In this document: positions 16,611 to 62,172 of the stretch, in pieces | Numbering within the stretch: the stretch's first letter is position 1 | Layout: each line of letters opens with the position of its first letter | DNA from: an uncultured Alphaproteobacteria bacterium | GTDB taxonomy: Bacteria; Pseudomonadota; Alphaproteobacteria; Rhizobiales; Xanthobacteraceae | DNA length: 64,000 bases | Assembly (NCBI GenBank): GCA_963818155.1 | Contig: CAWFRC010000001.1 | Location: forward strand, 7,730 to 71,729 | Direction of reading: 5' to 3' | Notes under the pieces: model-generated | What the model was told of the DNA's origin: nothing | Seen by the model: the letters and a program-made list of their open reading frames with translations, nothing else | Databases searched by the model: none | Position numbers and translations under genes: made by a program

Positions 16611-18017
16611 CTATCGGCCGTCCGGATTGCGTACACCCACCCAAGCGTCACGCACCTGTTGGTAATGCACCATCGGATCGTAGATCTGGACGTTGAGGCC
16701 AAGCCTCTGCATTGACAATGCACCCACCGCCGCCAGCAGCGTGTATGAGGCGACCACGCGGTCATGCTGAGCGGTGACGAGCGCCACGCGCGCATTCACC
16801 AACTCCTGTTGGGCATTAAGCACGTCGAGCGTCGTTCGCTGTCCGACCCGGGCTTCTTCGCGAACGCCGTTGAGCGCGATCTCGGCGGCGTTGACCTGCG
16901 CCGTGGTCGATTCGATCTGCGCCTTGGCGGCGTCGAGCTGTCCCCAGCTTTGCACCACGGTGGCCCGAGCCTGATCGCGGTTGACGTCAAGATTGAGCCG
17001 CTGCTGGCCGAGCGTCTCTTTCGATTGGCGAATCGCGGAATATTCTCCGCCGCCCTGATAAATCGGCACGGACAATTGCGCGACGGCCGAGAGCTGGGTC
17101 AGCTTGATCGTTTCGAAGGCCGGATTCTGCCCTTGAAGCACGCTCGCCGTCAGCGAGAGGTTCGGATAAAGCGCGCCTTCGCTGATCTTGACCGCAAGCT
17201 CCGCTACGTCGGCACCATAGGCCGCGGCAAGAACCGAAGGGCTTTGCGCCTGGCCCTGCGCGATCGCCTTCGCCAGCACGTTGGGTGACAGCCGGTCCAC
17301 AGGCGTTCCCGGCGCGAGATTGCCCGGCTCCACGCCGATCACGCGCCGATAATTGGCTCGCGACGTGACGTACTGCGACTGCGCGGCAAGCAGTTGCGAC
17401 CGACCGGCCGCGAGCCGCGATTCGGCCTGCGCCACGTCGGTACGCGTCACTTCGCCGACATTGAAGCGATCGCGCGTCTGCTTGAGTTGCTCGGTCAGAA
17501 CCTCGACGTTGCGCCGCTGCAGTTCAAGAACCGCTTGGTCGCGCAAAAGGTTCATGTAGGCCGTCGCGGCATCGAGCAGCACCTGCTGCTCGGTAACACG
17601 CAGCGTCTCGCGCGCCGCATCCACCTGGCTCTCGGCCTGGCGCGTGCGATTCGCGGTCTGAAAGCCGTTGAACAGCGTGTAGGTGCCGTTGGCGCCGACG
17701 GTGCGCGAGTAGAAGTTCTGTCCGAACTGGCTGTTCAGCAGCGCCCCAGCAAGCGGAACGATCGATGTCGCGTTCTGATAGTTATAGCCGCCGGTGGCAG
17801 TCAGGCTGAGCTTTGGGCGATAGCCCGACAAAGCCTGCGGGACGTTCTCATCGGTCGCGCGCAATGAGGCCCGTTGCGCATTGAGCGACGGATTATTTTG
17901 ATAAGCCTGCACTAAGGCCCATTCGAGCGTGTCGGCCCGGGCGCTGCCAAAGCCGGCAGCGGCCAAACAGATACTCACTAAGGCCAATACGAACGCCCGC
18001 ACCCCTCTGCCAGCCAT
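16611..18017 (-). CDS. tolC: TolC family outer-membrane channel
   Basis: 468 aa with signal peptide and two OEP repeats (LEWALVQAYQNNPSL...). pcm-tolC synteny. Confidence 0.9.
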   Translation of the reverse strand: MAGRGVRAFVLALVSICLAAAGFGSARADTLEWALVQAYQNNPSLNAQRASLRATDENVPQALSGYRPKLSLTATGGYNYQNATSIVPLAGALLNSQFGQNFYSRTVGANGTYTLFNGFQTANRTRQAESQVDAARETLRVTEQQVLLDAATAYMNLLRDQAVLELQRRNVEVLTEQLKQTRDRFNVGEVTRTDVAQAESRLAAGRSQLLAAQSQYVTSRANYRRVIGVEPGNLAPGTPVDRLSPNVLAKAIAQGQAQSPSVLAAAYGADVAELAVKISEGALYPNLSLTASVLQGQNPAFETIKLTQLSAVAQLSVPIYQGGGEYSAIRQSKETLGQQRLNLDVNRDQARATVVQSWGQLDAAKAQIESTTAQVNAAEIALNGVREEARVGQRTTLDVLNAQQELVNARVALVTAQHDRVVASYTLLAAVGALSMQRLGLNVQIYDPMVHYQQVRDAWVGVRNPDGR

Positions 18018-47210: not shown

Positions 47211-47883
47211 CAGCCGATCGTTTCTGGCGGTCGCATGATCGGAACCAATACGACGGTGTCGCATTATTGATGTGGAGCATCTGAGGCGCCGACATGGCCT
47301 CGATACCGCAACTATCCCGTCCCGATGTCTCCGCCGTTTCCACGCGAAATGAAACCTTTTGGCCCGCGTATGCGGGCTTTTCTCTTTGGGGCTGCCCGGC
47401 AGGTGGAACGGTCTGGCTCAAACACGATTAGATAATAAAGCAGAACGGCGATAGAAAAACCACCGTGTCGCAGCGCGCAGGCGCTCTTTGGTCGACGGAC
47501 CAAGGAAGCGCCTTTTTGTTTCTGCGAGGATGCTCTGTTCTAATAAGAAGAAGACCACTTCGCATTCTCGATAGTCGAGCGGCGGAACTTAACGTCGGCA
47601 TTTTCATTTGTTTGTTACGAGCATTCAATATGGACGGGGGACAGTCCATGACACCCGGATCAACACTATCACTCACTTTATTCGCTCTTGCACTGCTCGG
47701 AGTGGTGCGGGCGAGCGATCCACAAATCCAGCAATCCTGCATGAACGTCGCCGTCTGTGCGCTTGCAGTTCGATCAGGATTTCTGGCGGACAGACGTTCC
47801 GATCTTCAGGTACGTCACTCATCTTTGTTCGCATCGGATCAGCGGTCGCTCGGATCCGACATCGTCAATCCGTCGCTGTCCTG

Positions 47884-48408
47884 ATGAGGCTCGTCATGCG
47901 AACGACGCTCGCACTGTCTTTGGTGTCCCTTTTAGCCGCGCCGATGTTTGCGCAAGCGCAAGATCCGGCGGTGACGCTCGGGCCATGGACCATTGCGGTT
48001 TCCTCGAAAGCCGATCATTTCGACAATTGCAGCATGACGCGGTCGACCAGCGATCTCAACGCGAGCTTTGTTCGCGCCAACGACGGGCTGCTGCTTCTGC
48101 TCGATTCACCGAAATGGAGGCTTGAGCGCGGCAAAGCCTACGGGGTCACATTGGTCGCGGGCGCGCGATCGATTAACGCGCAGGCATTGGCCGAGACCAG
48201 AGGCGTGACGATTGCGCTTGCGGATCGCCCGCTCAACGAGAGATTACGGACAGCAAACGTCCTGGAGGTCATTGGCGAAGGGGCGAGTTTGCGCGTGCCA
48301 TTGGATGGAAGCACCGCTGCGCTTGCACGTCTGGAAAGCTGCTTCGAGAAGAACAGTCGCCAAGACACCGATACCAATCCATTCGTTGCGCCCAATCGCA
48401 AGCCCTAG
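47884..48408 (+). CDS. Secreted hypothetical protein
   Basis: Signal peptide MRTTLALSLVSLLAAPMFAQA-QD within track ORF 47608..48408. The upstream part of that ORF is AT-rich and looks non-coding. Confidence 0.55.
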   Translation: MRLVMRTTLALSLVSLLAAPMFAQAQDPAVTLGPWTIAVSSKADHFDNCSMTRSTSDLNASFVRANDGLLLLLDSPKWRLERGKAYGVTLVAGARSINAQALAETRGVTIALADRPLNERLRTANVLEVIGEGASLRVPLDGSTAALARLESCFEKNSRQDTDTNPFVAPNRKP

Positions 48409-48714
48409 AGCGCATCCCGACAAAGTCGAATCGCCGCATAATCAAGATTTATTGTAGTGGAGGCGCGCGCCTCCCCCAATCGGCATCGCACTGCGTTTCG
48501 CCCAAGATTGCACGCAGATCTACGGCGGAGCGAAGTCGGTATGCCGGTTGGAGACCTTAAGCCCCGATACGTTTGCGCAAACGGTCGTTGGCCGGATCGA
48601 CACCGGACTTCTGGGCTGTCACACCTATAACCGACACTTCGACCTCGAGGTCATCGACGTCTTCGGCGCCGTTCATGGCGTGGAATTCGTCACCGCACGT
48701 TATCGCGACGCGCA

Positions 48715-49587
48715 TTAGGAGCTGTTTCCATTGAGGCCCGGGCCGATGAAACGGCTCACGTCCGCAATGGTCACGCCCCGCCCCCCGTTTTCCGTCTTGC
48801 ATTCGGAAAGCGTTTGCAGCGACCTGCTCGGCGAAGTGACCGCCAGCGCCGCGGAAGCCTTCGCGGCGCCGTGGCTGTCATCCCATTCCTGCGCCGAGTG
48901 CTTCATCGCCCAAATGGCTGCCTGGGTGCGATTGCGGACCCGCACTTTGCGCAAGATCGCTTTGACATGGACTTTGACGGTCGCTTCGGTGATGTCGATC
49001 TTCCGCGCAATGACCTTGTTTGACGACCCCTCGACAATGCACCGCAAAATACAATTCTCGCGAAACGACAATTGTGGCCACTCGAGTTCGGCCGCTGCCG
49101 CCATCCTTGGCGCAGGGTCATGCTGGTAGTGCTCGATCCTCTGGTACCGCTCCTCCCCCTGAGGATGCCGGACATAAAATAGCAGCTCCGGCGGCAGGAT
49201 CGTCTCTCCCAGCATGACGAGTTCCAGCGCCTTGATGAACGCGTCGGATTTCTCCTCGCTATCGAAATAGACGTTCGCCCCCGCTTGGAACGCCGCGACC
49301 ATTTCCGCCGAACGGCTGCGGTTGCCCAGCACCGCCACGCGCCCATCCGGATGCTGCTCCTTGAAAATCTTGATTTGCGCTAGCGCAATATTGGCATCGC
49401 CATTCGACTCTATGATCAGAAAGAGTTGATCGTTTCGCTGGGCCACGTTTGCTGCGATATCTTCTAAGGAGGCCACCGACGCGACAACGCGAAAATTGGC
49501 GTCGCCGAGGATATGCGTCAATCCCTCCCGCAACAGAGCATGTGGCCCGATGAGAATAATGCTGAAAGGTCGGCGTCGCATGGACAT
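48715..49587 (-). CDS. LuxR/FixJ-type regulator with degenerate receiver domain
   Basis: C-terminal HTH (LSFRENCILRCIVEGSSNKVIARKIDITEATVKVHVKAILRK). The N-terminal receiver-like fold lacks the acidic pocket by eye (IGPH.., LFLIIESNGD). Confidence 0.8.
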   Translation of the reverse strand: MSMRRRPFSIILIGPHALLREGLTHILGDANFRVVASVASLEDIAANVAQRNDQLFLIIESNGDANIALAQIKIFKEQHPDGRVAVLGNRSRSAEMVAAFQAGANVYFDSEEKSDAFIKALELVMLGETILPPELLFYVRHPQGEERYQRIEHYQHDPAPRMAAAAELEWPQLSFRENCILRCIVEGSSNKVIARKIDITEATVKVHVKAILRKVRVRNRTQAAIWAMKHSAQEWDDSHGAAKASAALAVTSPSRSLQTLSECKTENGGRGVTIADVSRFIGPGLNGNSS

Positions 49588-50036
49588 ACTCTCTAACCGT
49601 TCTCAGCTGATACGATGTGAGCCCAGTTCGCAGACTGTGTGAGCACACGCGATCTGTGCGTCTGCAATGTTGTCGTATTTGCTGCCTTCAGAAAACAACA
49701 ATGACGATCAAAAGACCATCCATCAGCAAACAATAATCGCACGCCGCGTAAGGCACGTCTGCCCTTTTCCCTCATGTCTACCACCACGCCTTTCGGGCGA
49801 TGCCCGCTGCCTGTTGCTCCTCCCCGGCTCCTTCTCGTCAGTCACCCAATCAATCTTCCATTATTGCGCTTTTGCTCGTTTCACTCGTCGTTCATTCCAC
49901 GCCCGGCCGCCCCGACTTACCTTCACGTAAAACAATCACGGCATTTCTTTTTCTTTTTTTCGACTCTGGCGATACTTTCTAAAGGATACTCCCGCAACAA
50001 GCCGCGTAAGCGCTATGGCTTTTCTGTTTCATGAAT

Positions 50037-50064
50037 TGAACAACATGTTCAGTTTGATGAACAT
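50037..50064. promoter_or_regulatory. Cluster of TGAACA/TGTTCA inverted repeats (candidate operator)
   Basis: TGAACA-aca-TGTTCA (50037-50051) overlaps ATGTTCA-gtttga-TGAACAT (50045-50064). Preceded by the palindrome TTCATGAA (50028-50035). Confidence 0.3.
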
Positions 50065-50318
50065 CGCCCCGTGCCCGCATTTTGCGTTTTGCGGCGTCTC
50101 AACCCACGCTTTTATCGAAATGACGGCGTTATTCCGCCGGTCGGCCGCCGGCGCCGCGCGGAAGTCAACGCCTCTCTCATCCATGACCACCATGGATGGC
50201 GTCGTCCGTGAATCGCGGCCTTCCCTGGGCCGACCACTATTTTCCAGACCAAGCGTGAGGGGAAAACGCGCCTACGCTTCCGACAAGATCTGGTGCCATC
50301 TAAAAGCCCACGCGTGCT

Positions 50319-50999
50319 TCAGGACGGCGGCAGCACATACCGGCGCGCCCCGCTATCATCGAGCACAAACAGCGGCGAATAAACGGCGGAAGCATCGACG
50401 TCAGTCACCATCGTCATGGTGCGGTTGTCGAGGATCAACCACCCGTTGCCCGCATAAGCGCCGACGACCATGTGATCCTCGCCGCGGCGCCTGTTGTGAA
50501 CGATCACCAGGCGCACGCGCTCCGGTGCGATTCCGACCTGCCGCAAAGCGAAATACTTGGCGAGCGCATAGTCTTTGCAATCTCCGGCTCCGAGGCTGAG
50601 CACTTCGAGAGGCGACAGCCAAGCGCCTGGCGTCGGTCGCAGCAACAAGTTGATGGTGCGATTGATGTGGCCGAATACCGCCCGGCCACGATAGTTTCTC
50701 GCCTCCTCGACGATCGCCGTGAGTTTGTGCACCGCTCGGCAATCCGACGAGGCGTCTTCGGTGCACGCATTCATCGCTTCTTGATCGCTTGCGATCCGCG
50801 CCAGCTCGTCGCGCCATTTGGCGGCAACGCCGTTGGCCTCGTCGTGGAGGAGGATGCTGTCGCCGCCGAAGGGATCGTGCGGCAAAGATGCGTGCAGAGC
50901 CGCCGTGAACGCGAGAATGAATGCGCCGACGGCGAGGAGGCCGGGCACACAAGCGGCAATTCTAACGATGATCACGCGCACGACCAGACCCACTGTCAT
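50319..50999 (-). CDS. Bacterial transglutaminase-like cysteine proteinase (BTLCP, LapG-like, peptidase C93)
   Basis: Cys-His-Asp context GDCKDYALAKY ... EDHMVV ... WLILDN. N-terminal membrane/signal segment from ATG 50999. Confidence 0.8.
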   Translation of the reverse strand: MTVGLVVRVIIVRIAACVPGLLAVGAFILAFTAALHASLPHDPFGGDSILLHDEANGVAAKWRDELARIASDQEAMNACTEDASSDCRAVHKLTAIVEEARNYRGRAVFGHINRTINLLLRPTPGAWLSPLEVLSLGAGDCKDYALAKYFALRQVGIAPERVRLVIVHNRRRGEDHMVVGAYAGNGWLILDNRTMTMVTDVDASAVYSPLFVLDDSGARRYVLPPS

Positions 51000-51255
51000 C
51001 GAGCCTCCACCCGTGCGAACTCGAGACCGAATTCTGGCGAACGCGGCAGCAGTGCCGGCAGCTCTTTCGGAGTAAGTGTACAAATCTTTCGCGCCCGCAT
51101 GGTTGCCACTCGAAGCGATCTCAACAACCTCGTTTCCACGTCCTTCTTGCGCGAACAAGACCAAGCGACATCGTTATCCGAAATAGTAGATGCCTTCTGC
51201 CGCCTGGTGCCGATCATCGCGAATCGAAAACGCTCGCTCGCAACAGAGATGCACC

Positions 51256-51462
51256 ATGCCGTGGTATTCATTCGTTGCGTGTTGGCCTGAAGGTGGCGCA
51301 GATGACACGCGCACTACCAGTTTGTCGGACCAGGACGAAGCTCGCCACTACGCTCATCTAATCATCCGCGAGCTCAAATCACATCCGGACTATCGTCATG
51401 CCGGACAAAGAATGGTGGTGCGGGACGACGATGGCCATGTGGTTGAGGTTATTCCGTTTTAG
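51256..51462 (+). CDS. DUF6894-like small protein
   Basis: 68 aa. MPWYSFV...DEARHYAHLIIRELK...VVRDDDGHVVEVIPF resembles the MPRYFFH...E.VPF family pattern. Confidence 0.55.
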   Translation: MPWYSFVACWPEGGADDTRTTSLSDQDEARHYAHLIIRELKSHPDYRHAGQRMVVRDDDGHVVEVIPF

Positions 51463-51821
51463 CGAGACCCCGCACAGGCCCCCCTGCGCAGGTGTGAACG
51501 CAGCTGATTCGGCAAACGCGACTGGAACTCTGCGCGCGACGGTCTGGCCTTGAACAGACATTCCGCAAGCACAAAGCAGGTTGGCATATCGCGGCTAACT
51601 GCTGGTGGCCGATTCGCGTTATAGTCTCGCTAGTACCGAGACGAGGTCGGGGCGGCCGACAGCCTAGCCTGACGTACCTGCGAAGATTTCGGCCAACAAG
51701 TTTGACGCGCTTGCAGAGATTTCGGTTTCGGCTCGGCCGCCCTGAACCTTGATCTTCGGTTTTTTGGAACGCCCAATAGCCGACATTGGCAGCAGACGGG
51801 ATTTGCGGCCGATGCTGGGTA

Positions 51822-53174
51822 TCAGGCAGGATCTTTGCCCGGCTGAGACGGCTGAGGTGAGATCCCGAAGCGTTTCATTTTGGTCCAGAGAGTGACGCGA
51901 GAAATTCCGAGGCTTTCTGCGGCGCGTCCGACCCGGCCTTGATGCCGGGACAATGCTTCGACAATGCGCTGGCGCTCCGCCGCGGCCCGGGCGCTGTTAA
52001 GCGTAGACTTCGACGATGGCACAACTCCTTCGGCAACTTCGCCGGGAAAAACGTCAGCCACCCCGATCCTTCCGCCGTTGGCAAAGCTAAGCGCGCGCAC
52101 GAGGCGATTGCGCAGTTCCCGAACATTGGCGGGCCAATCATGCGCACGCATCGCGGCAAGCGCTTCGGCCTCGACCGGCAACGCCGGCACGCCGAGTTCC
52201 GACGCGACATCGGCGAGCAACACCTCGAGCATCGGCTCGATGTCGGCTTGCCGCTCGCGCAACGGCGGAACGGCGATCTCGATGATGGCGACGCGGTTCA
52301 CCAAGTCTGGAGTGAGCTGATCGCGCAACCTCACGGCGGAAAATTGGGATGAGGCGAGAATCCTCGCCTCGAACGGCAGCTCGGTGCCTATGTCGCCGAT
52401 GCGCATGAACCGCTTGCTATCCATCGCCTGAATCAGCTTGCCCTGAACGGCCGTCGGCAACTCGCTGATCTCGTCGAGAAAGAGCGTGCCGTGACCGGCC
52501 TGCTCCAAGCCTCCGGTATGCAATTCGGCTCCGTCGGTGCCGGCACGGAGCACCTCTCCAAACAACAATCTTTCCCCGTCGTGACCGGTAAGACTGCCGC
52601 ATCGCAAGGCGACGAACGGCTCACTCGCGCGAGCCGAAAGATAATGGGTGAACCGCGCTGCAACTTCCTTGCCACTGCCCGGCTCGCCGACGATGAGCGC
52701 ACTCACCGTGCTGCTGGCAAGGCGCTCCAGGCGGCGTTTCAACTCGACCATGGCCACGGAGGCCATGGTCGGATCGGGCCAGCTCCTCCTGTCCGCGAAC
52801 GAAAGCCGGCCACTCATGACTCGCCGCAGCGCCACGACGAGCGCCGACATGTCGTAAGGCTTCTGCAAATAATCCGCCGCGCCATGTTTGAGGAGGCGAA
52901 CGGCTTGATCGACATCGACTGACGCGGCCGTAAATATAATCGGGGTCGAACCGACATAGGTCAGCGCGTCCCGGTAAATTTGCTCGACATCGCTGTCCGG
53001 TAGACGGACTTCGCTTACGATCGCGTCGAATCGCAACGAGCGAAGCAGTCCCATGGCTTGCGCACGATTTTTTGCAGCCTGCGGCCTGAACCCTTCGTTC
53101 TCAAGGGTGCTAATCAACTTCCCAGATAAATCTTCGTCCGCCTCAATCAACAGAATCTTGGCAGCGTTCGGCAT
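51822..53174 (-). CDS. NtrC-family AAA+ enhancer-binding-type regulator lacking GAFTGA and the receiver Asp
   Basis: Walker A GEPGSGKE, Walker B TLFLDEI, R-finger NVRELRN, Fis-type HTH. The loop reads LFGEVLRAGTDGAELHTG instead of GAFTGA. The receiver reads AIVSEVRLPD. Confidence 0.85.
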   Translation of the reverse strand: MPNAAKILLIEADEDLSGKLISTLENEGFRPQAAKNRAQAMGLLRSLRFDAIVSEVRLPDSDVEQIYRDALTYVGSTPIIFTAASVDVDQAVRLLKHGAADYLQKPYDMSALVVALRRVMSGRLSFADRRSWPDPTMASVAMVELKRRLERLASSTVSALIVGEPGSGKEVAARFTHYLSARASEPFVALRCGSLTGHDGERLLFGEVLRAGTDGAELHTGGLEQAGHGTLFLDEISELPTAVQGKLIQAMDSKRFMRIGDIGTELPFEARILASSQFSAVRLRDQLTPDLVNRVAIIEIAVPPLRERQADIEPMLEVLLADVASELGVPALPVEAEALAAMRAHDWPANVRELRNRLVRALSFANGGRIGVADVFPGEVAEGVVPSSKSTLNSARAAAERQRIVEALSRHQGRVGRAAESLGISRVTLWTKMKRFGISPQPSQPGKDPA

Positions 53175-54086
53175 TCCCCAGCTCCAACGCACCAGCCGCT
53201 CGCTTACCCTTCAACACAGCACGCGCTGAAAAAGCGATAGCGGGTACCTCCCTGGCCGGACCACCAGCATGTTGCGCAACCTTGACGCCTGTCAAGCAGA
53301 TGCAACGACACGAAGCTTGCCCTTGTTTTCAGCAATTCAGTTGTGATCTGCGTCACCCAAGCGATCCGCAGGGCCGGAAACGCGATGCTTCATGGCCTTC
53401 GGCCCAACAGACAATGCGCGACAAAATGCAACTGATATTTGTATTTTTTTAGCTCGAGAACATGCCTATCCGGGGCGTTAGCGTTGATTTTTAGTTTGGG
53501 CATGGCCACCGTCCCACATGCCGTTTACTGCCACGCGCCATTTCCTATTGGGCAATTCGATATCGCGTGGCGACGGGCGCGTCTCAGATATTTCACTTGC
53601 TTTGCCGGTGTTTTGGAAGTGGTGCCCGGCCGTTGTGCGATCACGGCGGCGTGAACGAAGTTAACCAACGTTCGCCCGAGGGCGGCCCCGTCAAATTCCA
53701 AAAGCGGCCATTTTCAGCGGCGATTCCGCCGTCGGTTAAATGATCTGAACAGCGCGTTGTCACTACTTTACCTAAGAGTAGATTGACGCTTTCAATCAAA
53801 GATAGTTGTTTGCTGCTGTGTCGGAGGGTCAACTCCGGCGGGCAGAGAGGGAGGCGGCCGAACCGGGACATTGATGTGCTTTTTTGGTTACGATCGGCGT
53901 CGGGACTGATCGCCTTGCGGTTCTTTGCGGGTCGTTTGTTTCGAACCGGTCTCCAGAACAGTCAAAGTCTAAATCATTCTTATTCGACGTGAATGGCTGC
54001 CGCAGATCGTTCGTGGATCGCAGACGCAGAAGATCAGCGATTCTACGAAGTGATGGGTGTGTCTTCACGTCTAGAGGAGACACGTC

Positions 54087-54755
54087 ATGGGTATCAATTT
54101 CTGGGATCCGAACAATCAGAATCAGGATCAAGGCCAGGGCCAAGGCGAAGGCCAGGGCCAGCTGAGCCTCCAGGGCCAAGGTCAGGCCCAGGCTCAGATT
54201 GCCGCCGATCTGAACGGCAATCTGAACGGCAACGGCAACGGCAATCTGAACGGCAACGGCAACTTCAACGCCGACGGCAACCTCAACGGCAACCTCAACG
54301 ACAACGTCAATCACAACACCGATACGGTGTGCGTCGACGTCAGTGTCGATGCGAGCGTGACGCCGCTGATCGGCGATCTGAGCGACGCCACGGCCCTCTA
54401 CATGCCGCAGGACATTGCTCAGAGCTTCACTGCCGGCGGCACCGACACCGCCATCGCTCTCGACCAGATCAACAGCCTTGTTGCCAACAACACGGCGCAA
54501 GATCTGCACAACTCGGATCATTCCAGCATGTGGGGCAGCGGCGCGACGGAATCCGGCGCTGTCGACGTCGGCGACATCAGCCAGGGCGCCTTGGCCACGG
54601 GCCAACTGCAGGGTGCGACTTCGGCGGCCGCGACGGTTGACGCGTTCACCCAGAGCATCGTTCTCGGAGCCAACATCCAGAACAACTCGTTCACCCTCAC
54701 CATCACGGGCCATGATTCGGCCGTGACGGCCGGTGACGCCGCCCATCACGGGTAA
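54087..54755 (+). CDS. Gln/Gly- and Asn/Gly-rich low-complexity protein, candidate T1SS substrate
   Basis: AGGAGA RBS 7 nt upstream. No signal peptide. aa 9-37 are (Q-G/A)n and aa 42-77 are (N-G/L)n. The C-terminal half shares the motif LGANIQNNS with the next gene. Confidence 0.7.
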   Translation: MGINFWDPNNQNQDQGQGQGEGQGQLSLQGQGQAQAQIAADLNGNLNGNGNGNLNGNGNFNADGNLNGNLNDNVNHNTDTVCVDVSVDASVTPLIGDLSDATALYMPQDIAQSFTAGGTDTAIALDQINSLVANNTAQDLHNSDHSSMWGSGATESGAVDVGDISQGALATGQLQGATSAAATVDAFTQSIVLGANIQNNSFTLTITGHDSAVTAGDAAHHG

Positions 54756-54768
54756 ATTCTAAAGCGTG

Positions 54769-54798
54769 AGGCCCGTGCGCTACGGCGTGCGGGCCTTT
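54769..54798 (+). terminator. Hairpin after the 222-aa gene (12-bp stem incl. 2 G-U, loop uacg, short U tract)
   Basis: aggcccgtgcgc-tacg-gcgtgcgggcct followed by tt. Hand-folded. The weak U tract suggests partial termination at most. Confidence 0.4.
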
Positions 54799-54904
54799 AC
54801 ATCCGCAACTCGACGGGGGACGGGGTCGCGGATGGCTCTGCTCTCAATTCGGCTACCGGTAATACAACCGCGTTTGTCGTAACAGCCAACGATCGAGTGG
54901 TGAC

Positions 54905-56887
54905 ATGGCATCCTCCGACGTGCTCAACGAACTGATTGCGCACTTTGCCGGCTACCTGCGGCTTCCTCCCGGTGACAACTACACCGTGAAGATTCTCTAT
55001 GAGGGAAGCGCGGTCCCTGACACCGGCCAAGCCGACGACAACGCGAAATCCCATGCGGTCCATCACCCGGACCTCGATCAGTTTCACGGCGCGCACCTGA
55101 ACGTACCCCCAATACCGGCGTTCAAGCCCGACCATTTATTCTATTTCACACCGCATAAGTTCCACAACACGGACTTTCATTCTCCGCACCCAACCCTGAT
55201 CCTGCCCCACGCGCTGCCGCCTTTGCTCAACGGTCCGGCCGGCGCCGGCGGTGGCGGCGGCGGTGGCGGCAATTTCCAGATTACAGCCAGCTACCAAAGC
55301 GGCGGCGACGAGACGATACTCGACATCCGCCAGGTCAACGTGCTCTCGAACAACAATTTGCTGATCAACAATCAGCAGGTGACCGCGGCGACCGAGGCTT
55401 ACGAGCACAACCTAAAGCACGCCGAAAAGGTCCTCGGCGACATGGTCCAGCAGGCGAACGACGCCATTCCCAACAGCCTCAATCTCTCCGCTGACAATAC
55501 ATCCTCAGGTCTGCAGCAATTCGTCGAAGCGCGCGATGCGCACCCGATCAGCACGCTGGCGCAAGACGCACCGTTCTCCACCCACCCAGGGCAATACGTG
55601 AACGGAACGCCGGTCACCGACGGCTCCAATCCGCATCAGACAACCGACAACCTGCTCACCACGGTTGCCAATGCCGAGCAGACAGGGTTGACGGGCCCGC
55701 CGCAAGCACCGGCGGGCGACTACCAGCATGACCACATCGCAACAGTGTCGGTCGGCTCCAACTATCAGGCGAACGACGCCGCCATCGTCAATGGGGAAGG
55801 CCTCACCGCGATGTTGGCGGTGCAAGGGAACTACTATCAGACCGAAGCGATCATCCAAACGAACGTGGTGGGCGGCAGCGACCATATTTCCGGCGGCGGC
55901 CCGGGCGCGGCTTCGATCGCAGCGAACACGGTGCAGAATATCGCCGATATGCAGAACCAGGTGCCGACACTCACGTCCGGCGGATCCGGGACCACTACAT
56001 CGGGCCTGAATTGGTCGGTGACGGTCCTCAACGGCGACCTAGCCGATGTTCACTCCCTGGTACAAACGAACTACCTGCAAAATAACAACGTGGTCTATCA
56101 AACCACCGAGATGGGCGAGAGTCTGACGGTCGCCGGCAGCAACATTCAGACGAACTCCGCCGAGTATCAGAATTTAACGTCGAACTACCAATTGATCATC
56201 GTCGAAGGCAACTACAACCAGGACGACCTGATCTATCAGACCAACGTCATGTTGGATAACAACAACGTCAGGTTCCACGGTGGCCACGGCGGCGGCACTG
56301 CGAGCGCGACAGGCGGCGGCGACAACGTCGTCAACGACGCCACGATCGTCGATACCGCTAACCACAATTATCAGGCGTTTACCCCCGCCGCCCAGTCCGT
56401 CGTACAAGCCTTGGAAAGCCAGTCGGGGACCGTCGACCCCGCCTCGGTGTTGAGCGCGTTTCCGAACCTGTTCGGAAACATCAATGTGCTTGTGGTCACG
56501 GGCAACTATTACGACATAAACTACATCTCGCAGACCAACATCATGTCGAACTCGAACGTCGTGCAAATGTGGGGCGGCCATGGGGCGACGGACACGGTCA
56601 ATACCGGAAGCAACATAGCGGTCAACGCGGCCACCATCATCGACGGCGGCAGCGCGTTGTCGCCCTATCTGCAGGGCAGCTACTACAACGACATGATCCT
56701 GCTGCAGACCAATATCATCGGCAACAATGCGAGTGCCGCCGCACACAATCCGAACCAGTTCGTGCCCGAACTTGTGGCCTTCACGGGCGCCTTGGACTCC
56801 GCGCATCAAGGTTCCGAGGCCACGATCGCGGCCGCGGCAAGCGTGCAACAGCATCATCACGACGGTGTAGCCGGCGTGATGCACTAA
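54905..56887 (+). CDS. 660-aa repeat protein with GNYY-x4-I-x-QTN-type repeats, candidate T1SS substrate (non-RTX)
   Basis: 5-6 copies: VQGNYYQTEAIIQTNVV, LVQTNYLQNNNVV, VEGNYNQDDLIYQTNVMLDNNNV, VTGNYYDINYISQTNIMSNSNVV, LQGSYYNDMILLQTNII. Gly8 tract at aa 115-122. No signal peptide. Confidence 0.75.
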   Translation: MASSDVLNELIAHFAGYLRLPPGDNYTVKILYEGSAVPDTGQADDNAKSHAVHHPDLDQFHGAHLNVPPIPAFKPDHLFYFTPHKFHNTDFHSPHPTLILPHALPPLLNGPAGAGGGGGGGGNFQITASYQSGGDETILDIRQVNVLSNNNLLINNQQVTAATEAYEHNLKHAEKVLGDMVQQANDAIPNSLNLSADNTSSGLQQFVEARDAHPISTLAQDAPFSTHPGQYVNGTPVTDGSNPHQTTDNLLTTVANAEQTGLTGPPQAPAGDYQHDHIATVSVGSNYQANDAAIVNGEGLTAMLAVQGNYYQTEAIIQTNVVGGSDHISGGGPGAASIAANTVQNIADMQNQVPTLTSGGSGTTTSGLNWSVTVLNGDLADVHSLVQTNYLQNNNVVYQTTEMGESLTVAGSNIQTNSAEYQNLTSNYQLIIVEGNYNQDDLIYQTNVMLDNNNVRFHGGHGGGTASATGGGDNVVNDATIVDTANHNYQAFTPAAQSVVQALESQSGTVDPASVLSAFPNLFGNINVLVVTGNYYDINYISQTNIMSNSNVVQMWGGHGATDTVNTGSNIAVNAATIIDGGSALSPYLQGSYYNDMILLQTNIIGNNASAAAHNPNQFVPELVAFTGALDSAHQGSEATIAAAASVQQHHHDGVAGVMH

Positions 56888-56938
56888 CGAAAACACTTCG
56901 GCTCAAGCTGGGGGCGCCAGAACGGCGCAAGAAAAGCG

Positions 56939-59020
56939 ATGGATAATAGTGGAGGCTCGCCGCCGTCGAATGGTCCTACGGCAGGCAAAGCGATCAACGG
57001 CGCCAACGGGACCCAGCGCAACGGAGCCAGCGGCACGAGCACAGCCAATGGCACGAACGGAGGTGGCGCGGCAAACGGAGCCGGCGTCGTAAACAGCAGC
57101 AGCGTCGCAAATACCACCAAGGTTGCCGCGAACGCCGGCAGTGTCGTCGCGAACGGTGGCAAGCCTGCCAACGGCGGCAAGCCCGCGAACGGAGCCAAGC
57201 CCGCAAACGGCAGCAATGGCGGACAAGGAGGCAACGGCGCCAAAGCCGGCGCCAAGGCCGCGCTGCAACAGCGAGCCGCCGACCGCGAATTTCAAAACGT
57301 ACTCGGCAAGACGATCGAGATCGCCCGGCGCAAGATCGTCGTTGTTGGCATCTTCTCGCTCGCAGCCAATCTGCTGCTGCTGGCGATGCCGATCTATCTC
57401 TTCCAGCTGTCGGACCGCGTCTATACGAGCCGCAGCACCGATACCCTGGTCATGCTGTCCGTGGTGGTGGTCGGCGCGATCGCCGCCTACGTCTTTCTCG
57501 ACATGATGCGCCGGCTCATCCTCACGCGAATCGCGGTCGAGACGGAATCGAGGCTCGGCGCCCCGGTCCTCAGCGCCGCCGCCAAAGGCGCGCAAAGCGG
57601 CATAAGCCGCGATTTTCAGACGCTGGGCGACCTGCAGCAACTGCGTGCATTCATCACTGGGCCGGTGATCCTGATGATGCTGGATGCCCCGGTTGCACCG
57701 TTCTATTTGCTCGCTGTTTACATGATTCATCCGCAGCTCGGCATGATCGTCACCGTGACCGGCGTTGCCCTTATGGTCATCGCGCTTCTTAACCAGAAGC
57801 TCACCGCCGTCCCGTTTGCGCAGGCCAACACCTATGCGACGCGCGCGAATCTTGCCTCCGATGCCATGGCGCGCAATGCGCAGGTGATGAACGCCATGGG
57901 GATGATTCCCGAAGGCGTGCAAATTTGGGGGCGGGAAACCGCGGAGTCGCTTAAGGCACATGTGACCGCCCAGGATCGCAACACTTATCTTGCGGGCATT
58001 TCGAGGATGGTGCGGCTCTGCACCCAGGTCGCAATCCTCGGCTGGGGAGCTTGGCTCGCGCTGCACGACGAACTGACTGGCGGCATGGTAATCGCCGCTT
58101 CGATCGTGGCGAGCCGGGCGCTGGCCCCGCTCGAGGGCACGATCGAAGGCTGGCGCGGCTTCATTCACGCGCGCTCGGCTTGGGCGCGCATCAAAGCGCT
58201 GCTGCAGAATTCGCCGTTGAATGTCGAGCGGCTGCGACTGCCCAATCCGAGCGGCCGGCTTACGGTCGAGCGGATTTTGTATGTGCCGCCGCCGAGTAAG
58301 AAAGTTGTCCTCAATGGCGTCTCGTTCGAGCTGGAGCCCGGGGAATCCCTGGCGATCGTCGGGACTTCGGGCGCCGGCAAGTCGACGCTGGCGCGTATGC
58401 TGGTCGGATCGATCACGCCCACTGCGGGCAACGTCCGGCTCGACTGGATGGATTTGCGCAACTGGGATCCGCGCCAGTTCGGCGAAAGCGTCGGCTACCT
58501 GCCCCAGGACGTGCAGCTGTTCCCGGCGAGCATCAAGGCCAATATTGCGCGCATGCGCGAGGACGCCACTGACACGGCGATTTTCGAGGCCGCCGAGCTC
58601 GCCGACGTCCACGAGATGATTTCTCAGTTCCCGGCCGGTTATGAGACGCAGGTTCTGATCGACGGCAGCCCGCTGTCCGGCGGCCAGAAGCAGCGCATCG
58701 GTCTCGCCCGCGCCTTCTTCGGCAGTCCGCGGCTGGTCGTTCTCGACGAGCCGAACTCCAACCTCGACGCCGCCGGCGAGATGGCGCTTGCCCGCGCGCT
58801 CAGTCGAGCCAAAGACAAGAAAATTACCATCGTTGCGATCACGCAGCGGCCGTCATTGCTGCAAAGCGTCGACCGCATCATGATCATCAAGGACGGCACC
58901 ACGCAGACCATCGGCAAGCGCGATGAGATCATCCCGCTGTTGAACGGCCGCCCGCCGAATGCCAACGGTTCGCCTCCGCCGGCAAATACGACCAATGGAA
59001 AACCTCGTCTCGAAGCTTAA
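56939..59020 (+). CDS. Type I secretion system ABC transporter (PrtD family) with ~118-aa Asn/Gly/Ala-rich N-terminal extension
   Basis: TMD plus NBD (GTSGAGKST, LSGGQKQR, VVLDEPNS). No C39 domain. No in-frame ATG/GTG/TTG between codon 1 and the first TM helix. Confidence 0.9.
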   Translation: MDNSGGSPPSNGPTAGKAINGANGTQRNGASGTSTANGTNGGGAANGAGVVNSSSVANTTKVAANAGSVVANGGKPANGGKPANGAKPANGSNGGQGGNGAKAGAKAALQQRAADREFQNVLGKTIEIARRKIVVVGIFSLAANLLLLAMPIYLFQLSDRVYTSRSTDTLVMLSVVVVGAIAAYVFLDMMRRLILTRIAVETESRLGAPVLSAAAKGAQSGISRDFQTLGDLQQLRAFITGPVILMMLDAPVAPFYLLAVYMIHPQLGMIVTVTGVALMVIALLNQKLTAVPFAQANTYATRANLASDAMARNAQVMNAMGMIPEGVQIWGRETAESLKAHVTAQDRNTYLAGISRMVRLCTQVAILGWGAWLALHDELTGGMVIAASIVASRALAPLEGTIEGWRGFIHARSAWARIKALLQNSPLNVERLRLPNPSGRLTVERILYVPPPSKKVVLNGVSFELEPGESLAIVGTSGAGKSTLARMLVGSITPTAGNVRLDWMDLRNWDPRQFGESVGYLPQDVQLFPASIKANIARMREDATDTAIFEAAELADVHEMISQFPAGYETQVLIDGSPLSGGQKQRIGLARAFFGSPRLVVLDEPNSNLDAAGEMALARALSRAKDKKITIVAITQRPSLLQSVDRIMIIKDGTTQTIGKRDEIIPLLNGRPPNANGSPPPANTTNGKPRLEA

Positions 59021-59050
59021 ACAGCAAAGAAGACCAGCAGGGGACGTCAT

Positions 59051-60389
59051 ATGGCAGGCGCAGTGATAGCGACTCGCGAGTGGTATGCGGATGTTCCGCG
59101 CCGCACGCACGTGCCAACCTCGGCGGGCATCATTTCGATGGTCTTGTTCGTGGTGGGATTTGGCTATTGGTCGAATACGGCTCTCATCGCTGGCGCGGTG
59201 ATCACCTCGGGCGCCTTCGTGACGACGGGCCAAAACAAGATCATTCAGCATCTGGAAGGCGGCGTCATCCGCGACATCCTCGTGCGCGAAGGCGACATCG
59301 TCGAGCCGGGCCAGACCCTGATCCAGCTTGACCCGACCGCTCCGCGATCGGAGCTTGACCGGCTGACCCTGCGTCACATGCGCTCTGAGGCAATGGAGGC
59401 GCGTCTTGTCGCCGAGATCCGCAACGAGCCGCAGGTGACATTTCCCGCCGACCTGTCGGCGCGGCGCAACGACACGGACATCAAATCCCTCGTCGGCGCC
59501 CAACAGCTCACGTTCGACGCCTGGCGCAAGAATTCTTGAAGCGGATATCGCCGCGTTGCAGGACGGCATAAGTGCTATCAAAGAGCGGATGAACGCGTCG
59601 CAAACGCAGAAGAAAGCGGTCGGGCACCAGATCGAGTTGATCGAAGAAGAACTCGCCAACAAGAGCGCGCTGTTGCCATCGGGTCTGGTGCGCAAGCCGG
59701 AAATCCTCGCCCTGCAGCGTGCCCAGGCTGCTCTGCAAGGCGAAATCGGCAAACTGGACGGCGAAATGGGCGAAGCCAAAGAGCAGATTGCCAAGACCGA
59801 GCAGCAGATCGTCGGTTTGCGCACGTCAGCGATCAAAGAGGCTGTCGAGCAGCTCCATCAAACCCGCGCGGAGATTGCCGACTTTCGCGAGCGCATTCGC
59901 ACCCAGCAAGGGATACTCGATCGCGTGAGCATCGCCGCGCCGGTGCGCGGTATTGTCGTCAAGTTGAGGTATCACACCACCGGGGGTGTCATCGAGCCCG
60001 GCAAGAACATCATGGAAATCCTGCCGCTGCGGGATAATTTGGTAATCGAAGTGCGCGTGCGTCCGCAGGATATCGATCACGTCAAAATCGGGCAGGAAGC
60101 GTCGATCCGTCTGACGGCACTCAACCGCCGCACCACGCCGACGCTGACCGGCAAAGTGCTCTATGTCTCTGCCGATGCGCTGCCGGATGATCTTCAGACC
60201 GTCCAGGGCCGCGAGGTTTACGTCGTCCGGATCGCGCTCGACGAAGAGCAGCCCCCGCCGATGCAAAATTTCAAGCCCAAACCCGGCATGCCGGCCGAGG
60301 TGTATATCAAGACCGCCGAGCGCACGTTTTTCGAATATCTGATGCAGCCGATCCGCGATAGCATGGCGCGTGCCTTCCGCGAATCGTGA
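59051..60389 (+). pseudogene. HlyD family T1SS periplasmic adaptor, interrupted by one frameshift at ~59531-59540
   Basis: ORF 59051..59539 holds the TM anchor and first lipoyl half. The frame of ORF 59556..60389 continues LEADIAALQDG... with the coiled coil, beta-barrel and C-terminus. Confidence 0.8.
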
Positions 60390-60926
60390 TTAAAACTGGT
60401 GCTGGTAACCCTCGACGCTCAACGGTTCCATCAGTTGCGCATCGAAGTAGCGCGACCACAGCGCGGATCTGATCTCGCGCTCGGCGGGGGGAGAAGCCGA
60501 GTGTTCCTCATCGAGCCGCTGGCTTTGCGGCACCGCCGCATCGAGCGCCTGAATGAACGACTCAGCGTTGCGGCATCCAGATATGAACCGGCTGTCGTTG
60601 GAAGCGCTGAGAAAGCACATCTCCTCGCCAACGAGATCGCCGGGCATCCCGGTAATGTCCGCCCAGGCACCGGCTTGCACCGCCGCCAGATCGTCGGTGT
60701 CGAGCGCCCCGATGTGGTACGTCGCGATGGACGTGATCAGCATGCCGAGAAAGCCGATCACATAAGGATCGTGCCATGCCGCATCGGGGATATTGCCTAA
60801 GCGCAGCCGAGTACCGTCAAGAAGCGGAATAATTTGAGCGACCGCAGCGCGACGCCCCCGATAAGTCTTCCACAAGCCAAACACTTTACGCTCCGTCGCC
60901 GAATGACGCCGACCCACCCGGCCCAA
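60390..60926 (-). CDS. Hypothetical protein, convergent with and abutting the T1SS adaptor gene
   Basis: Coding-like codon usage on reading. Only a TTG start at the ORF edge. Its stop codon directly abuts the hlyD stop (tgatta). Confidence 0.5.
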   Translation of the reverse strand: MGRVGRRHSATERKVFGLWKTYRGRRAAVAQIIPLLDGTRLRLGNIPDAAWHDPYVIGFLGMLITSIATYHIGALDTDDLAAVQAGAWADITGMPGDLVGEEMCFLSASNDSRFISGCRNAESFIQALDAAVPQSQRLDEEHSASPPAEREIRSALWSRYFDAQLMEPLSVEGYQHQF

Positions 60927-61028
60927 CCAGACGGGCCGCTTCTATTTAACGCTGAATTTGCTTATATCTATTAAAGTATTCTCGTTCATTATGCCACTGC
61001 GTTCGCTGGTGCGCTGATTTCGAGACGC

Positions 61029-61637
61029 TTGATTGCGATCGCCGTTCGAATGAGGGTGCCTGTGTCCCAACTGCCGCCAAAGCCCGACTTTGCCGCCATC
61101 GAAGCCGCTGCGCACGGTTCGGCGAACCGCCGCACGTTTATCATGGCACTGATCGGCAACCTGGTTTACAGCTGGGCGAACAACGAAAGCATGTTCATCT
61201 ACGTGTTGATGATTCTGATGAACACCGATGAGCCTTCGGCCGCGGTGGTGTTCACCACTCTCAACACGACCCGAGCGCGCCTTGATCTGGTCGAGCGGCT
61301 GGCAAGGATCAAAATCGGGGACAAGTCCATCCAAAAAGCGCTCGAACGCATCATCGGGCAGTTCAACGAATTGACCAAGCTGCGCAACGAATTCAATCAC
61401 TGTATGTACACGCTCAATGAACGCGGCGAGATCACGCACACCCATTCGATCCGCATGCAGGACGTCAAGGGAAAGCTGCAACTCGGCGTTATTCGCAAAA
61501 TGGACGATGCCCGGATCAACGACATACTCGCGGCGGTCCGCGATATGACCAAGCTCAATCGTGAAATCTGGGACTTCCTCCCTCGGCTGCAAAGCAGCCT
61601 CCAGGCGTCGCCAAACGATCCCTCTCAAAAGTCGTAA
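61029..61637 (+). CDS. Hypothetical protein with HEPN-like R-N-x3-H motif
   Basis: Coding-like codon usage. KLRNEFNH (61382-61399) fits Rx4H with Asn after Arg. Start uncertain (61029/61050). Confidence 0.6.
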   Translation: MIAIAVRMRVPVSQLPPKPDFAAIEAAAHGSANRRTFIMALIGNLVYSWANNESMFIYVLMILMNTDEPSAAVVFTTLNTTRARLDLVERLARIKIGDKSIQKALERIIGQFNELTKLRNEFNHCMYTLNERGEITHTHSIRMQDVKGKLQLGVIRKMDDARINDILAAVRDMTKLNREIWDFLPRLQSSLQASPNDPSQKS

Positions 61638-61713
61638 AGCGATGTTCCTGCCGCGCTGATTGCCAATCTCGATGGCCGGCGCTTCTGCCCCCTACCCGGC
61701 CGCAGTCGTTCCT

Positions 61714-62172
61714 TCAGCACAGCGTATCGATCTTGGGCGGCTCCTCAATACCGACGAGGAAATCACGCGGTCTTTTGTCCTGCAAGCACGCGCAAGCTGA
61801 CGCCAGCATGCGTCCGCGCGCGCCCTCGATCATCTGCGCCACGGCTCTCAACATCTCGGCAGTGGTCTCAAGATTGGCCACCGTCTCTTCGAAGCCGTCG
61901 AAGGCTTGCGCGCTGTGAATCTTGACCAATTGGTCCTTGGTGAGATGCATGATCGAGTAAGCGGTGCGCGAAACCTCTGCGGCCACACACATGCTCTCGT
62001 CAGAAGGAAACGGCGCCTCACTTGAATTGTCTTGCGTCCAGGGGACCCAGTCCAATTTGGCGTAAGCGCGCAACTTTGCGGAATGGGCGCTTTTCTTGGG
62101 CCTGATACCCGGCCGGGCACTGCTCGAGCGCTCCCAGGCAGTGCGAAACCGCTTGACGTCCGTTATCGACAT
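61714..62172 (-). CDS. Hypothetical protein
   Basis: 152-aa ORF with no competing ORF. No family recognised. Confidence 0.45.
   Translation of the reverse strand: MSITDVKRFRTAWERSSSARPGIRPKKSAHSAKLRAYAKLDWVPWTQDNSSEAPFPSDESMCVAAEVSRTAYSIMHLTKDQLVKIHSAQAFDGFEETVANLETTAEMLRAVAQMIEGARGRMLASACACLQDKRPRDFLVGIEEPPKIDTLC

Follow-up and report, generated by a model that had tools for sequence, protein, structure and literature searches.

A 64,000-nt stretch of DNA from an uncultured alphaproteobacterium of the Xanthobacteraceae (the window) contains a locus centred on a type I secretion system (T1SS). A PrtD-type ATP-binding cassette (ABC) transporter and a periplasmic adaptor are preceded by the genes of two proteins without any family match, the candidate cargo, and accompanied by regulators, a divergent pair of small genes and a structured leader RNA (Table 1). 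The best explanation of the locus is one copy of a vertically inherited Hyphomicrobiales module, meaning the conserved gene set around the T1SS, with a core at 48715–49587 and 53978–61637. Synteny across related loci brought the LuxR-type gene into the module, moved its end to 61637 and took the BTLCP (transglutaminase-like cysteine protease) and DUF6894 genes out of it. The original prediction, made from the letters of the sequence, had ended the locus at 60926, with the p202 gene outside. All the genes it listed are present, among them a Q/N/G-rich 222-aa protein, a hairpin, a 660-aa protein with GNYY..QTN repeats and the DUF6894 gene, as is the AT-richer stretch of ~0.9 kb before the small gene (894 nt, 53.9% GC as against 61% for the window). 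Its account needed correction on the integrity of the adaptor gene, the end of the module and the membership of BTLCP and DUF6894. Its "convergent unknown gene" past the adaptor exists too, with a true length of ~164 aa; it is paired with the p202 gene and travels with the T1SS in most relatives.

Table 1. Features of the T1SS locus and its presumed outer-membrane partner in the window, with the number of related sources (out of 71) in which each gene was found.
Feature	Position	Strand	Basis	Sources (of 71)
LuxR/GerE-type regulator with degenerate (pseudo-)receiver	48715..49587	-	GerE 63.1 bits; Response_reg 19.5 bits (cut-off 30.2)	49
BTLCP with N-terminal membrane anchor or signal	50319..50999	-	PF06035 39.7 bits	window only; also in L006 (excluded duplicate)
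DUF6894 small protein	51190..51462	+	PF21834 27.9 bits	window only; also in L006 (excluded duplicate)
bEBP-type AAA+ regulator (REC, sigma-54 interaction domain, Fis helix-turn-helix)	51822..53174	-	Pfam domains	5
Structured 5' leader of the small gene	53978..54098	+	nhmmer and covariance model	
Small cargo candidate, 222 aa	54087..54755	+	no family match	44, and the window
GC-rich stem-loop, 14 nt past the small-gene stop	54770..54795	+	11-bp stem, -23.4 kcal/mol	
Large cargo candidate (BIG), 660 aa	54905..56887	+	no family match	56
PrtD-type T1SS ABC permease/ATPase	56939..59020	+	TIGR01842 682.7 bits (cut-off 510)	59
HlyD/AprE/LipC-type periplasmic adaptor (MFP), split by a +1 frameshift	59051..60389	+	TIGR01843	55
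c178, 164 aa, unknown function	60390..60884	-	syntenic in most loci, 35-63% identity	23 by strict clustering; more by tblastn
p202, 195 aa, probable divergent HEPN-domain protein	61050..61637	+	54-86% identity	40, and 10 where the ORF picker took the antisense frame
TolC-type outer-membrane factor (OEP)	16611..18017	-	PF02321 217.6 bits	

The match of the ABC protein to TIGR01842 covers residues 129–665, and the models for HlyB (252 against 725 bits) and LssB (337 against 693 bits) both stay below their cut-offs. Among solved structures, Aquifex PrtD (5L22, E 1e-113) matches the protein best. The N-terminal peptidase or C39-like domain is absent; instead, the protein starts with a G/A/N-rich low-complexity extension of ~108 aa (56939–57262), the extension originally described as N/G-rich. 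A low-complexity cytoplasmic N-terminal extension, 40–430 aa in length, is found in all ABC orthologues of the clade and might be a docking site for cargo or an accessory protein. The Afipia and Bradyrhizobium extensions have a short motif in common, such as AEVVPFPxRHD or AKIIPLRPWFD. The best solved relative of the adaptor is Serratia LipC (5NEN, E 2e-49); TIGR01843 scores 255.2 bits on its C-terminal fragment (cut-off 208.65) and 110.5 bits on its N-terminal fragment. By these profile matches, the transporter is a T1SS of the PrtD/LipB–LipC class. As predicted, no outer-membrane factor is encoded in the locus, nor is a TolC gene found within 10 kb of the cluster in any of the 70 related loci. 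The only TolC-type OEP gene of the window lies ~37 kb from the locus, beside the gene of a protein-L-isoaspartate O-methyltransferase (PCMT, PF01135) within 16611–19191(−), and is presumed to encode the shared outer-membrane partner.

Synteny was assessed by tblastn with the window proteins and all-against-all clustering of open reading frames (ORFs) in 71 non-redundant sources; the near-identical metagenome contig L006 was left out as a duplicate. A scan of one genome per species gave 68 loci, from Pseudolabrys, Roseiarcus, Afipia (broomeae, clevelandensis, massiliensis), Bradyrhizobium, Nitrobacter, Tardiphaga, Microvirga, Roseibium, Stappia and Salinarimonas, and 70 related loci were available overall. 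Wherever the sequence suffices, BIG, ABC and MFP are adjacent in this order (70 related loci, at least 10 genera). The recurrent arrangement is LuxR< c178< p202> small> (hairpin) BIG> ABC> MFP>. In the Pseudolabrys-like subgroup, which includes the window, the divergent c178</p202> pair sits past the adaptor and the gene of a bacterial enhancer-binding protein (bEBP) lies upstream of the small gene. Among the Hyphomicrobiales relatives, only the core keeps its gene order. In Afipia broomeae, RefSeq and UniProt annotate the orthologues of all four non-transport genes as "hypothetical". Apart from weak HEPN-type matches of p202, nothing in Pfam, NCBIfam or PDB matched the four families, and none had a significant fold match. 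The literature searches brought up no paper that describes the system; a preprint on a Zymomonas T1SS cargo was set aside, as it deals with an RTX protein.

Some neighbours recur in relatives. A gene for a 522-aa CelD/BcsL-like (FemAB-type) GNAT acyltransferase stands directly past the adaptor in 29 loci (L033 15665–17233 and 28 others), which form the Afipia, Bradyrhizobium and Nitrobacter group; the window has no homologue of it. PAS-GGDEF-EAL, TorS-HAMP-GGDEF-EAL or BcsS genes are located beside the module elsewhere (L007 4378–6720; L004 17509–20655; L002 6155–6871), and in L007 the PAS-GGDEF-EAL gene takes the place held by BTLCP and DUF6894 in the window. These genes hint at a cyclic di-GMP (c-di-GMP)/biofilm neighbourhood in the relatives. 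In the window, the sole GGDEF-type sequence seen at motif level is RxGGEEF in the ORF 6111–7484(−), a probable diguanylate cyclase.

The large cargo candidate is acidic (pI 4.6), with six Lys and four Arg, no Cys and no signal peptide. It has 72 close homologues; a profile search returned 748 cluster representatives at 50% identity, 498 of them below E 1e-30, and nearly all are 620–725 aa long and matched end to end. The family layout comprises a conserved N-terminal peptide, ELIWHFAGYLRLPP, a variable His/Pro/Gly-rich linker of ~100 residues, a β-rich core, repeats and a tail. The repeats are of the V.GNYY....I.QTN(V/I) type, with six Q-x-N motifs, and the invariant columns of the family are almost all Gln, Asn or Gly. 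The tail ends in HHHD-G-V-A-G-V-(L/M)-H (HHHDGVAGVMH in the window), where D653 is invariant and followed by hydrophobic residues. In the AlphaFold model calculated from the family alignment (pTM 0.69), the core (residues 124–607) is confident and almost all β, with a helical insert at 161–261; residues 1–123 and 608–660 are disordered. The best fold matches, none of them significant, are FapC (E 0.018), CsgA (E 0.11), SufD, tapirin and β-helix enzymes, with TM-scores below 0.12. A viral collagen-like protein matched at E<0.001 with a TM-score of 0.04; this hit was attributed to the poly-Gly/disordered part and rejected. No Pfam model, including RTX/HemolysinCabind, matched any of 52 family members even at E 0.1. 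Both cargo proteins are without a match in Pfam, NCBIfam, PHROGs and PADLOC, PDB searches with single sequences and with profiles were empty, and GGxGxD is absent from both. The earlier statements that neither protein has a GGxGxD nonapeptide array and that the cargo falls in no described family are borne out.

An enzymatic role for the large protein has a precedent in Rhizobium leguminosarum, where plyA lies directly upstream of prsDE and the non-RTX substrates PlyA and PlyB, exported by PrsDE, cleave exopolysaccharide (PMC2275737). By this analogy, the 660-aa protein would be a T1SS-secreted β-helix glycanase or lyase, the small protein an accessory or matrix partner, and the module would remodel exopolysaccharide. 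Polygalacturonase, pectate-lyase-like and parallel β-helix proteins do occur among the non-significant fold matches, and CelD/BcsL-like GNAT, BcsS and sugar-transferase-like genes lie nearby in relatives. However, β-helix, pectate-lyase and glycosyl-hydrolase Pfam models match none of the 52 family members at E 0.1, the invariant residues are Q, N and G rather than clustered acidic or basic catalytic residues, and the TM-scores of the fold search are low throughout (<0.12). We consider a glycanase quite unlikely.

The small cargo candidate has a pI of 4.05, no Lys, no Arg, one Cys and no signal peptide. None of its 207 homologues carries a Pfam domain, and 23 family members gave no match to RTX/HemolysinCabind or to any other Pfam model at E 0.1. 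Its family is built from a QG-rich tract, a stretch in which every second residue is Asn (N-x-N-x; residues 43–78 in the window) and a conserved C-terminal domain with the motifs LDQ(V/I)NxLxxN and DAFTQSIVLGANIQxNS, ending in GHDS...HH(S/G). The alternating Asn residues are nearly invariant. The small and large families have the motif GGxxxxIxLDQ(V/I)NxLxxNN in common. At some loci the small gene is duplicated in tandem, with one leader per copy.

This leader is one of two conserved RNA-level features around the small gene, the ~115 nt before its ATG being more conserved than the proteins; the original account of this region had missed it. A stem formed by 54010–54021 with 54037–54049 is capped by the invariant core GCAGACGCAGAAGATCAGCG (54020–54039), which across the family reads as the 21-nt CGCAGACGYAGAAGAUCAGCG (CGCAGACGYAGAAGATCAGCG). 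A second hairpin (54059–54066 with 54076–54083), followed by the ATG at 54087, sequesters the Shine–Dalgarno (SD) sequence; its pairing with an upstream anti-SD is GUGUCUUC/GGAGACAC in the window and GAUGCUCC/GGAGUUCGUC in Afipia. An nhmmer profile from five sequences finds the leader across genera. In 1.43 Mb the covariance model located 60 copies, each on the + strand and just before a small gene (L001 7737–7856 and 9011–9130, L033 8950–9064, L036 8977–9091 and 50+ others); every small gene has one, and the 1.43 Mb contains no match away from small genes. Standard pairs occupy 95.4% of the paired alignment cells as against 25–40% with slid partners, in an alignment that was itself fitted to the structure. 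Nine of the 15 pairs changed on both sides, and the observed values were reached by none of 500 shuffles. As G–U replacements occur inside the core stem, a role as RNA is favoured over one as a DNA operator. In the minimum-energy fold of the window leader alone (z-score −1.5), the 5' CGACGUGAA pairs with UUCACGUC; this alternative pairing would free the SD, so that an on/off switch is possible. Rfam 15 contains no match to the leader (E<=1 on the locus; gathering threshold on five relatives), which we regard as a candidate new cis-regulatory RNA.

An exact metagenome scan with the 20-nt core retrieved at least 120 contigs; among the matches listed, a small-family gene follows the core in 51 of the 101 contigs whose downstream sequence is long enough. 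An unrelated coding 22-mer, mostly one near-identical sequence and largely from gut metagenomes, accounts for about 33 of the 120 listed matches, which were discarded. In these the core is a coincidental copy inside the coding sequence (...FYFGTQTQKISDAVESKGAQ*), and the next gene looks lysin-like (L080, L082, L110, L118, L142, L153 and ~25 others). A further ~15 listed contigs have a leader variant without an ORF, with UAGAACUC...CCUCCC and a GC-rich hairpin after the motif (L143 374–492, L137 221–334, L101 893–1005, L078, L123, L096, L119, L085, L088, L136, L139, L156, L163, L182 and L095). It adjoins an orthologue of the LuxR gene (L143), an orthologue of the bEBP gene (L101) or sugar-transferase-like ORFs, is absent from the window, and may act on its own as a small RNA or attenuate transcription. 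A second, degenerate core copy seen by eye upstream of the LuxR gene (~49650–49667) was dropped, being unconserved in L007 and L143.

The stem-loop predicted between the small and large genes is also conserved, with compensatory changes in 7 of 11 pairs; in the 30 loci scored, an equivalent hairpin mostly lies 10–19 nt past the stop codon (2–34 nt overall). A scan for sigma-70 and terminator consensus sequences gave nothing of use, and the T tail of the hairpin was too weak for the scan to pick it up. The hairpin would act as an attenuator or as an mRNA-stabilising 3' structure, which would leave the small protein abundant and the 660-aa protein and transporter at lower levels.

Of the non-transport genes, p202 is the most conserved, with 54–86% identity where the cargo has 28–30%. 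None of its 917 homologues carries a Pfam domain. Invariant motifs are WxNNESxF, LNTTRAR, RNEFNHCxY and GEITHT, and R112-N-E-F-N-H117, in which Asn follows the Arg of an Rx4H motif, shows little or no variation among 33 sequences. The AlphaFold model (pLDDT 83.6) is a helical bundle (27–57, 61–88, 92–113 and 153–185; the helix numbering is our own assignment) with a five-strand meander inserted after helix 92–113. RNEFNH is located at the C-terminal end of this helix, the third of the core, with the β insert next, and the second helix carries [D/E]79-x3-R83, in which R83 is invariant. Hallmarks of HEPN domains are a four-helix core with an acidic-x3-basic motif in helix 2 and, at the C-terminal end of core helix 3, Rx4–6H with a polar residue after the Arg, and Csx1 has a β insert after the motif (PMC3710099). 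Weak profile matches were obtained with Pfam HEPN_Cthe2314 (7 of 33 members, E 0.025–0.05, below cut-off) and with PADLOC Csx1 (E 1.2e-4) and CARF_HEPN (E 0.007), with overlap on residues 84–125. The three independent HEPN-type profiles overlap within residues 84–148, and all span 96–124, which includes RNEFNH. We think it probable that p202 belongs to the HEPN superfamily and cuts RNA. The protein is basic, with neither a T1SS-like acidic tail nor a hydrophobic segment. Its neighbour c178 is always paired divergently with p202, has no Pfam or PDB match (14 members) and contains one borderline hydrophobic segment (KD19 1.59). A link between p202 and the leader loop is an attractive idea. We know of no HEPN-type accessory protein reported for a T1SS.

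The Caulobacter CdzAB T1SS, without TolC in its cluster, exports two non-RTX proteins that form surface aggregates, and an immunity gene is adjacent (PMC5380434). The present module likewise combines two cargo candidates with a tightly linked gene pair, c178 has its borderline hydrophobic segment, and HEPN domains are common as toxin modules (PMC3710099). The module could be read as a contact-dependent two-protein bacteriocin, its toxic aggregates T1SS-exported and retained on the surface, with c178/p202 providing immunity or, alternatively, with p202 as a HEPN RNase toxin and c178 as its immunity protein. The cargo, however, is large and lacks glycine-zipper arrays, GxxxG occurring only inside QG, NG or poly-G low-complexity runs. 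Synteny is kept across genera, the cargo is conserved over its full length and no polymorphic toxin tip was seen. Moreover, p202 is more conserved than the adaptor (54–63% where the cargo has ~30%), the opposite of a toxin/immunity arms race, is basic without the acidic tail of a T1SS substrate, and is transcribed divergently from c178 rather than co-transcribed with it. A bacteriocin seems rather improbable to us.

Both regulators had been described as phospho-independent, and their receivers indeed lack the usual phospho-acceptor features. In the LuxR-type protein of the window, the DD pair is replaced by GP, D59 by Glu and K109 by Ser. Within the LuxR family beside the clusters, position D59 is not Asp in 40 of 49 members (F, S, C, N, E, G or Y) and K109 is mostly Thr or Asn. 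The CsgD model gives a partial match to this regulator (61.8 bits). The bEBP, confined to the Pseudolabrys-like subgroup, lacks GAFTGA as stated before; all five orthologues have a RAGTDGA-type sequence instead. Its phospho-acceptor position is Glu in the window; across the five orthologues, D54 is Glu in three, Ala in one and Asp in one. No sigma-54 −24/−12 element (TGGCAC-N5-TTGC, up to two mismatches) is present in 53193–54086.

The original prediction likened the locus to a Lap-type secrete-and-release adhesin module, in which the periplasmic BTLCP would cut the N-terminal part of the large cargo and free it from the cell surface. The BTLCP gene lies 3.9 kb upstream of the cargo, its product has a predicted anchor (N-terminal hydropathy peak 2.31 at residues 10–28) and keeps the Cys-His-Asp set as judged by eye, and the conserved N-terminal peptide of the cargo with its disordered linker of ~100 aa could occupy the secretion channel. 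The protein does belong to the BTLCP family and matches PF06035 and the transglutaminase core. It is not a LapG equivalog, scoring 60.7 bits on that model against a cut-off of 320. Among the related loci, BTLCP and DUF6894 genes occur beside the T1SS in the near-identical L006 but in none of the other 69, and for this reason the analogy fails. As had been noted, a motif scan of the locus found no LapD-like c-di-GMP receptor or GGDEF-EAL gene. The di-alanine LapG site [TAP]AA[GV] does not occur in the window cargo and is found in the first 160 aa of 1 of 52 family members, RTX repeats are missing, and the ABC protein lacks the C39-like domain of LapB/HlyB-class transporters. A Lap-type adhesin is very improbable here. 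The likeness to LapA/LapG/LapD is that of a T1SS substrate locus with a BTLCP-family gene nearby; four defining features of that system are not found, and the BTLCP is not conserved with the transporter. A LapG-like gene beside a T1SS is no evidence of a Lap system.

L006 is 99.44% identical to window positions 47796–64000. The ORFs flanking the module at 61714–62172(−) and 62857–63429(+) are common to these two sequences only and, like the ORF at 47608–48408(+), have no Pfam, PHROGs or PADLOC match. The two sequences differ in the adaptor gene. It was predicted as an HlyD adaptor, and the gene is present. It is not intact, as one extra T at 59533 relative to L006 (AAGAATTCTTGAAG in the window, AAGAATCTTGAAG in L006) splits it into 59051–59539 and 59556–60389, so that TIGR01843 positions 7–138 and 156–421 fall on two ORFs in different frames. 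The adaptor is intact in L006 (445 aa) and in all relatives. The system may be inactive in this strain, or the base may be a sequencing error.

The frameshift raises the possibility that the locus is a decaying remnant in this strain, having lost export and serving no function. Five of the six single-base indels between the window and L006 fall outside called genes, which looks like true polymorphism under selection rather than random sequencing error. Against decay stand the other genes, every one of which is intact, and the codon differences from L006, overwhelmingly synonymous (11 against 2 non-synonymous in the large gene, 5 against 1 in the ABC gene; no difference at all in the small gene and p202). 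Since the substitutions are mostly synonymous, purifying selection has acted on the genes, so that either the frameshift arose very recently or the assembly introduced the extra T. We regard a functionless remnant as possible and doubtful.

The reading we prefer, with a probability of roughly one half, is a dedicated T1SS that exports an abundant Lys/Arg-free small protein and a scarcer, β-rich 660-aa partner, both probably extracellular structural proteins; export, relative abundance and extracellular role are all inferred. The ABC protein, which has no peptidase or C39-like domain, and the adaptor would borrow the housekeeping TolC, and the two co-encoded acidic Lys/Arg-poor proteins, lacking signal peptides, would leave through C-terminal signals. 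The small protein would be the abundant product, with its own leader hairpin hiding the ribosome-binding site. The stem-loop past its gene would lower read-through into the downstream genes or stabilise the upstream mRNA, and the 660-aa protein would be made at transporter-like levels. Outside the cell, the pair would form or organise a surface or matrix structure based on Asn/Gln ladders in β-rich repeats, the large protein being the scarcer partner that serves as nucleator, anchor or adaptor. Expression would be set by the phosphorylation-independent LuxR/GerE regulator and, in the lineage of the window, also by the GAFTGA-less bEBP. Further control at the RNA level is possible if the HEPN-like protein acts on the invariant loop of the leader. 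A bolder version makes the module a type-I-secreted counterpart of curli or Fap, with an N/Q-rich, prion-like major subunit and the 660-aa protein as nucleator or anchor, the leader RNA being read or cut by the HEPN-like protein and the ORF-less copies acting as decoys or small RNAs; this we hold to be unlikely.

For the dedicated export of a structural pair we also count the matrix-type context in relatives, namely the CelD/BcsL-like GNAT gene at 29 loci and BcsS and GGDEF-EAL genes nearby in some. Indirect pointers to export are the adjacency of cargo and transporter genes, the acidic pI, the lack of a signal peptide and the disordered C-terminal tail; the conserved hairpin and the tandem duplication of the small gene point to differential expression. 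Several results weigh against it. The adaptor is frameshifted in the window. Structure prediction, suggested earlier as a check, did give a model of the large protein, but Foldseek searches of PDB and BFVD with it returned no significant neighbour; the idea of a ladder or solenoid therefore draws solely on the sequence pattern. Comparison of the small and large families by hhalign aligned the 26-column motif only, with a probability of 5.6%. A T-rich tail past the hairpin is seen in 9–12 of 30 loci and is weak in the window; with such a tail in about a third of loci, termination is not assured. For p202, the HEPN profile matches are weak (E 1e-4 to 0.05), and no HEPN structure is among the 50 PDB matches listed by Foldseek, none of which reaches E 0.001.

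Whatever the role of its cargo, the locus is a widespread, undescribed T1SS module, in which the pair of non-RTX cargo proteins and the structured leader RNA are new and the accessory protein is probably of the HEPN type. Its carriers include cultured Afipia, Bradyrhizobium, Nitrobacter, Microvirga and Roseibium, and the large family counts ~750 representatives at 50% identity. As the family is broad and the four non-transport proteins are all "hypothetical", the module defines a non-RTX substrate class and an accessory pair, both of them new, and a candidate cis-regulatory RNA that Rfam lacks. Discussions of type I secretion usually centre on RTX proteins, giant adhesins and small bacteriocins. 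The module is carried by bacteria that rank with the most abundant of soils and include opportunists and nitrifiers. If they do secrete a conserved structure, it would matter for soil aggregation, for biofilms and for the colonisation of roots. Since some carriers can be cultivated, the system is open to direct testing.

Among known systems, PrsDE of R. leguminosarum, from the same order, is the closest biological analogue. It also pairs a PrtD-class ABC protein with an adaptor, has no outer-membrane factor in the operon and a non-RTX substrate gene directly upstream of the ABC gene, and its substrates work in the extracellular matrix (PMC2275737; PMC9298526). The cargo here is unrelated to PlyA/PlyB and the Rap proteins and has no Ra/CHDL or β-helix domain. 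The present system is dedicated to two proteins and has its own regulator, a HEPN-like gene pair, a structured leader and a long ABC extension, features not described for PrsDE. An acidic residue followed by hydrophobic residues at the substrate C-terminus is a feature of the PrtD class, to which PrtDEF, AprDEF, LipBCD and HasDEF belong, and the cargo ends in the same way; the ABC protein meets TIGR01842 and the adaptor TIGR01843, with solved relatives in 5L22 and 5NEN. Those systems export RTX proteases or lipases, or the hemophore HasA, whereas here there is neither GGxGxD nor an enzyme domain, and the operon has no gene for the outer-membrane factor.

Cdz (CdzAB, CdzC/D, CdzI), the nearest T1SS of the kind in which two non-RTX proteins aggregate on the surface, is likewise an alphaproteobacterial system with two co-encoded cargo proteins and TolC in trans (PMC5380434). 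CdzC and CdzD are small glycine-zipper proteins and the immunity protein spans the membrane three times; in contrast, the cargo here is N/Q-rich, one protein has 660 aa, nothing is clearly a membrane immunity protein, and conservation follows vertical descent instead of being patchy. Curli (CsgA/CsgB, CsgD) and Fap (FapC/FapB) resemble the module in having an Asn/Gln/Gly-rich pair with conserved Q/N positions in repeated β units and, for curli, a LuxR/GerE-type regulator with an atypical receiver, CsgD being the partial match noted above. There is no sequence homology, the T1SS stands in place of the CsgG and FapF channels, and the repeat units are much longer here; the analogy is one of composition and regulator type, and composition and the Q/N pattern are suggestive of a possible amyloid nature. 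Finally, operons of the hlyCABD type have a terminator between substrate and transporter genes. The module has a comparable stem-loop between a presumably highly expressed upstream gene and the transport genes, but here it divides the small protein from the large protein together with the transporter.

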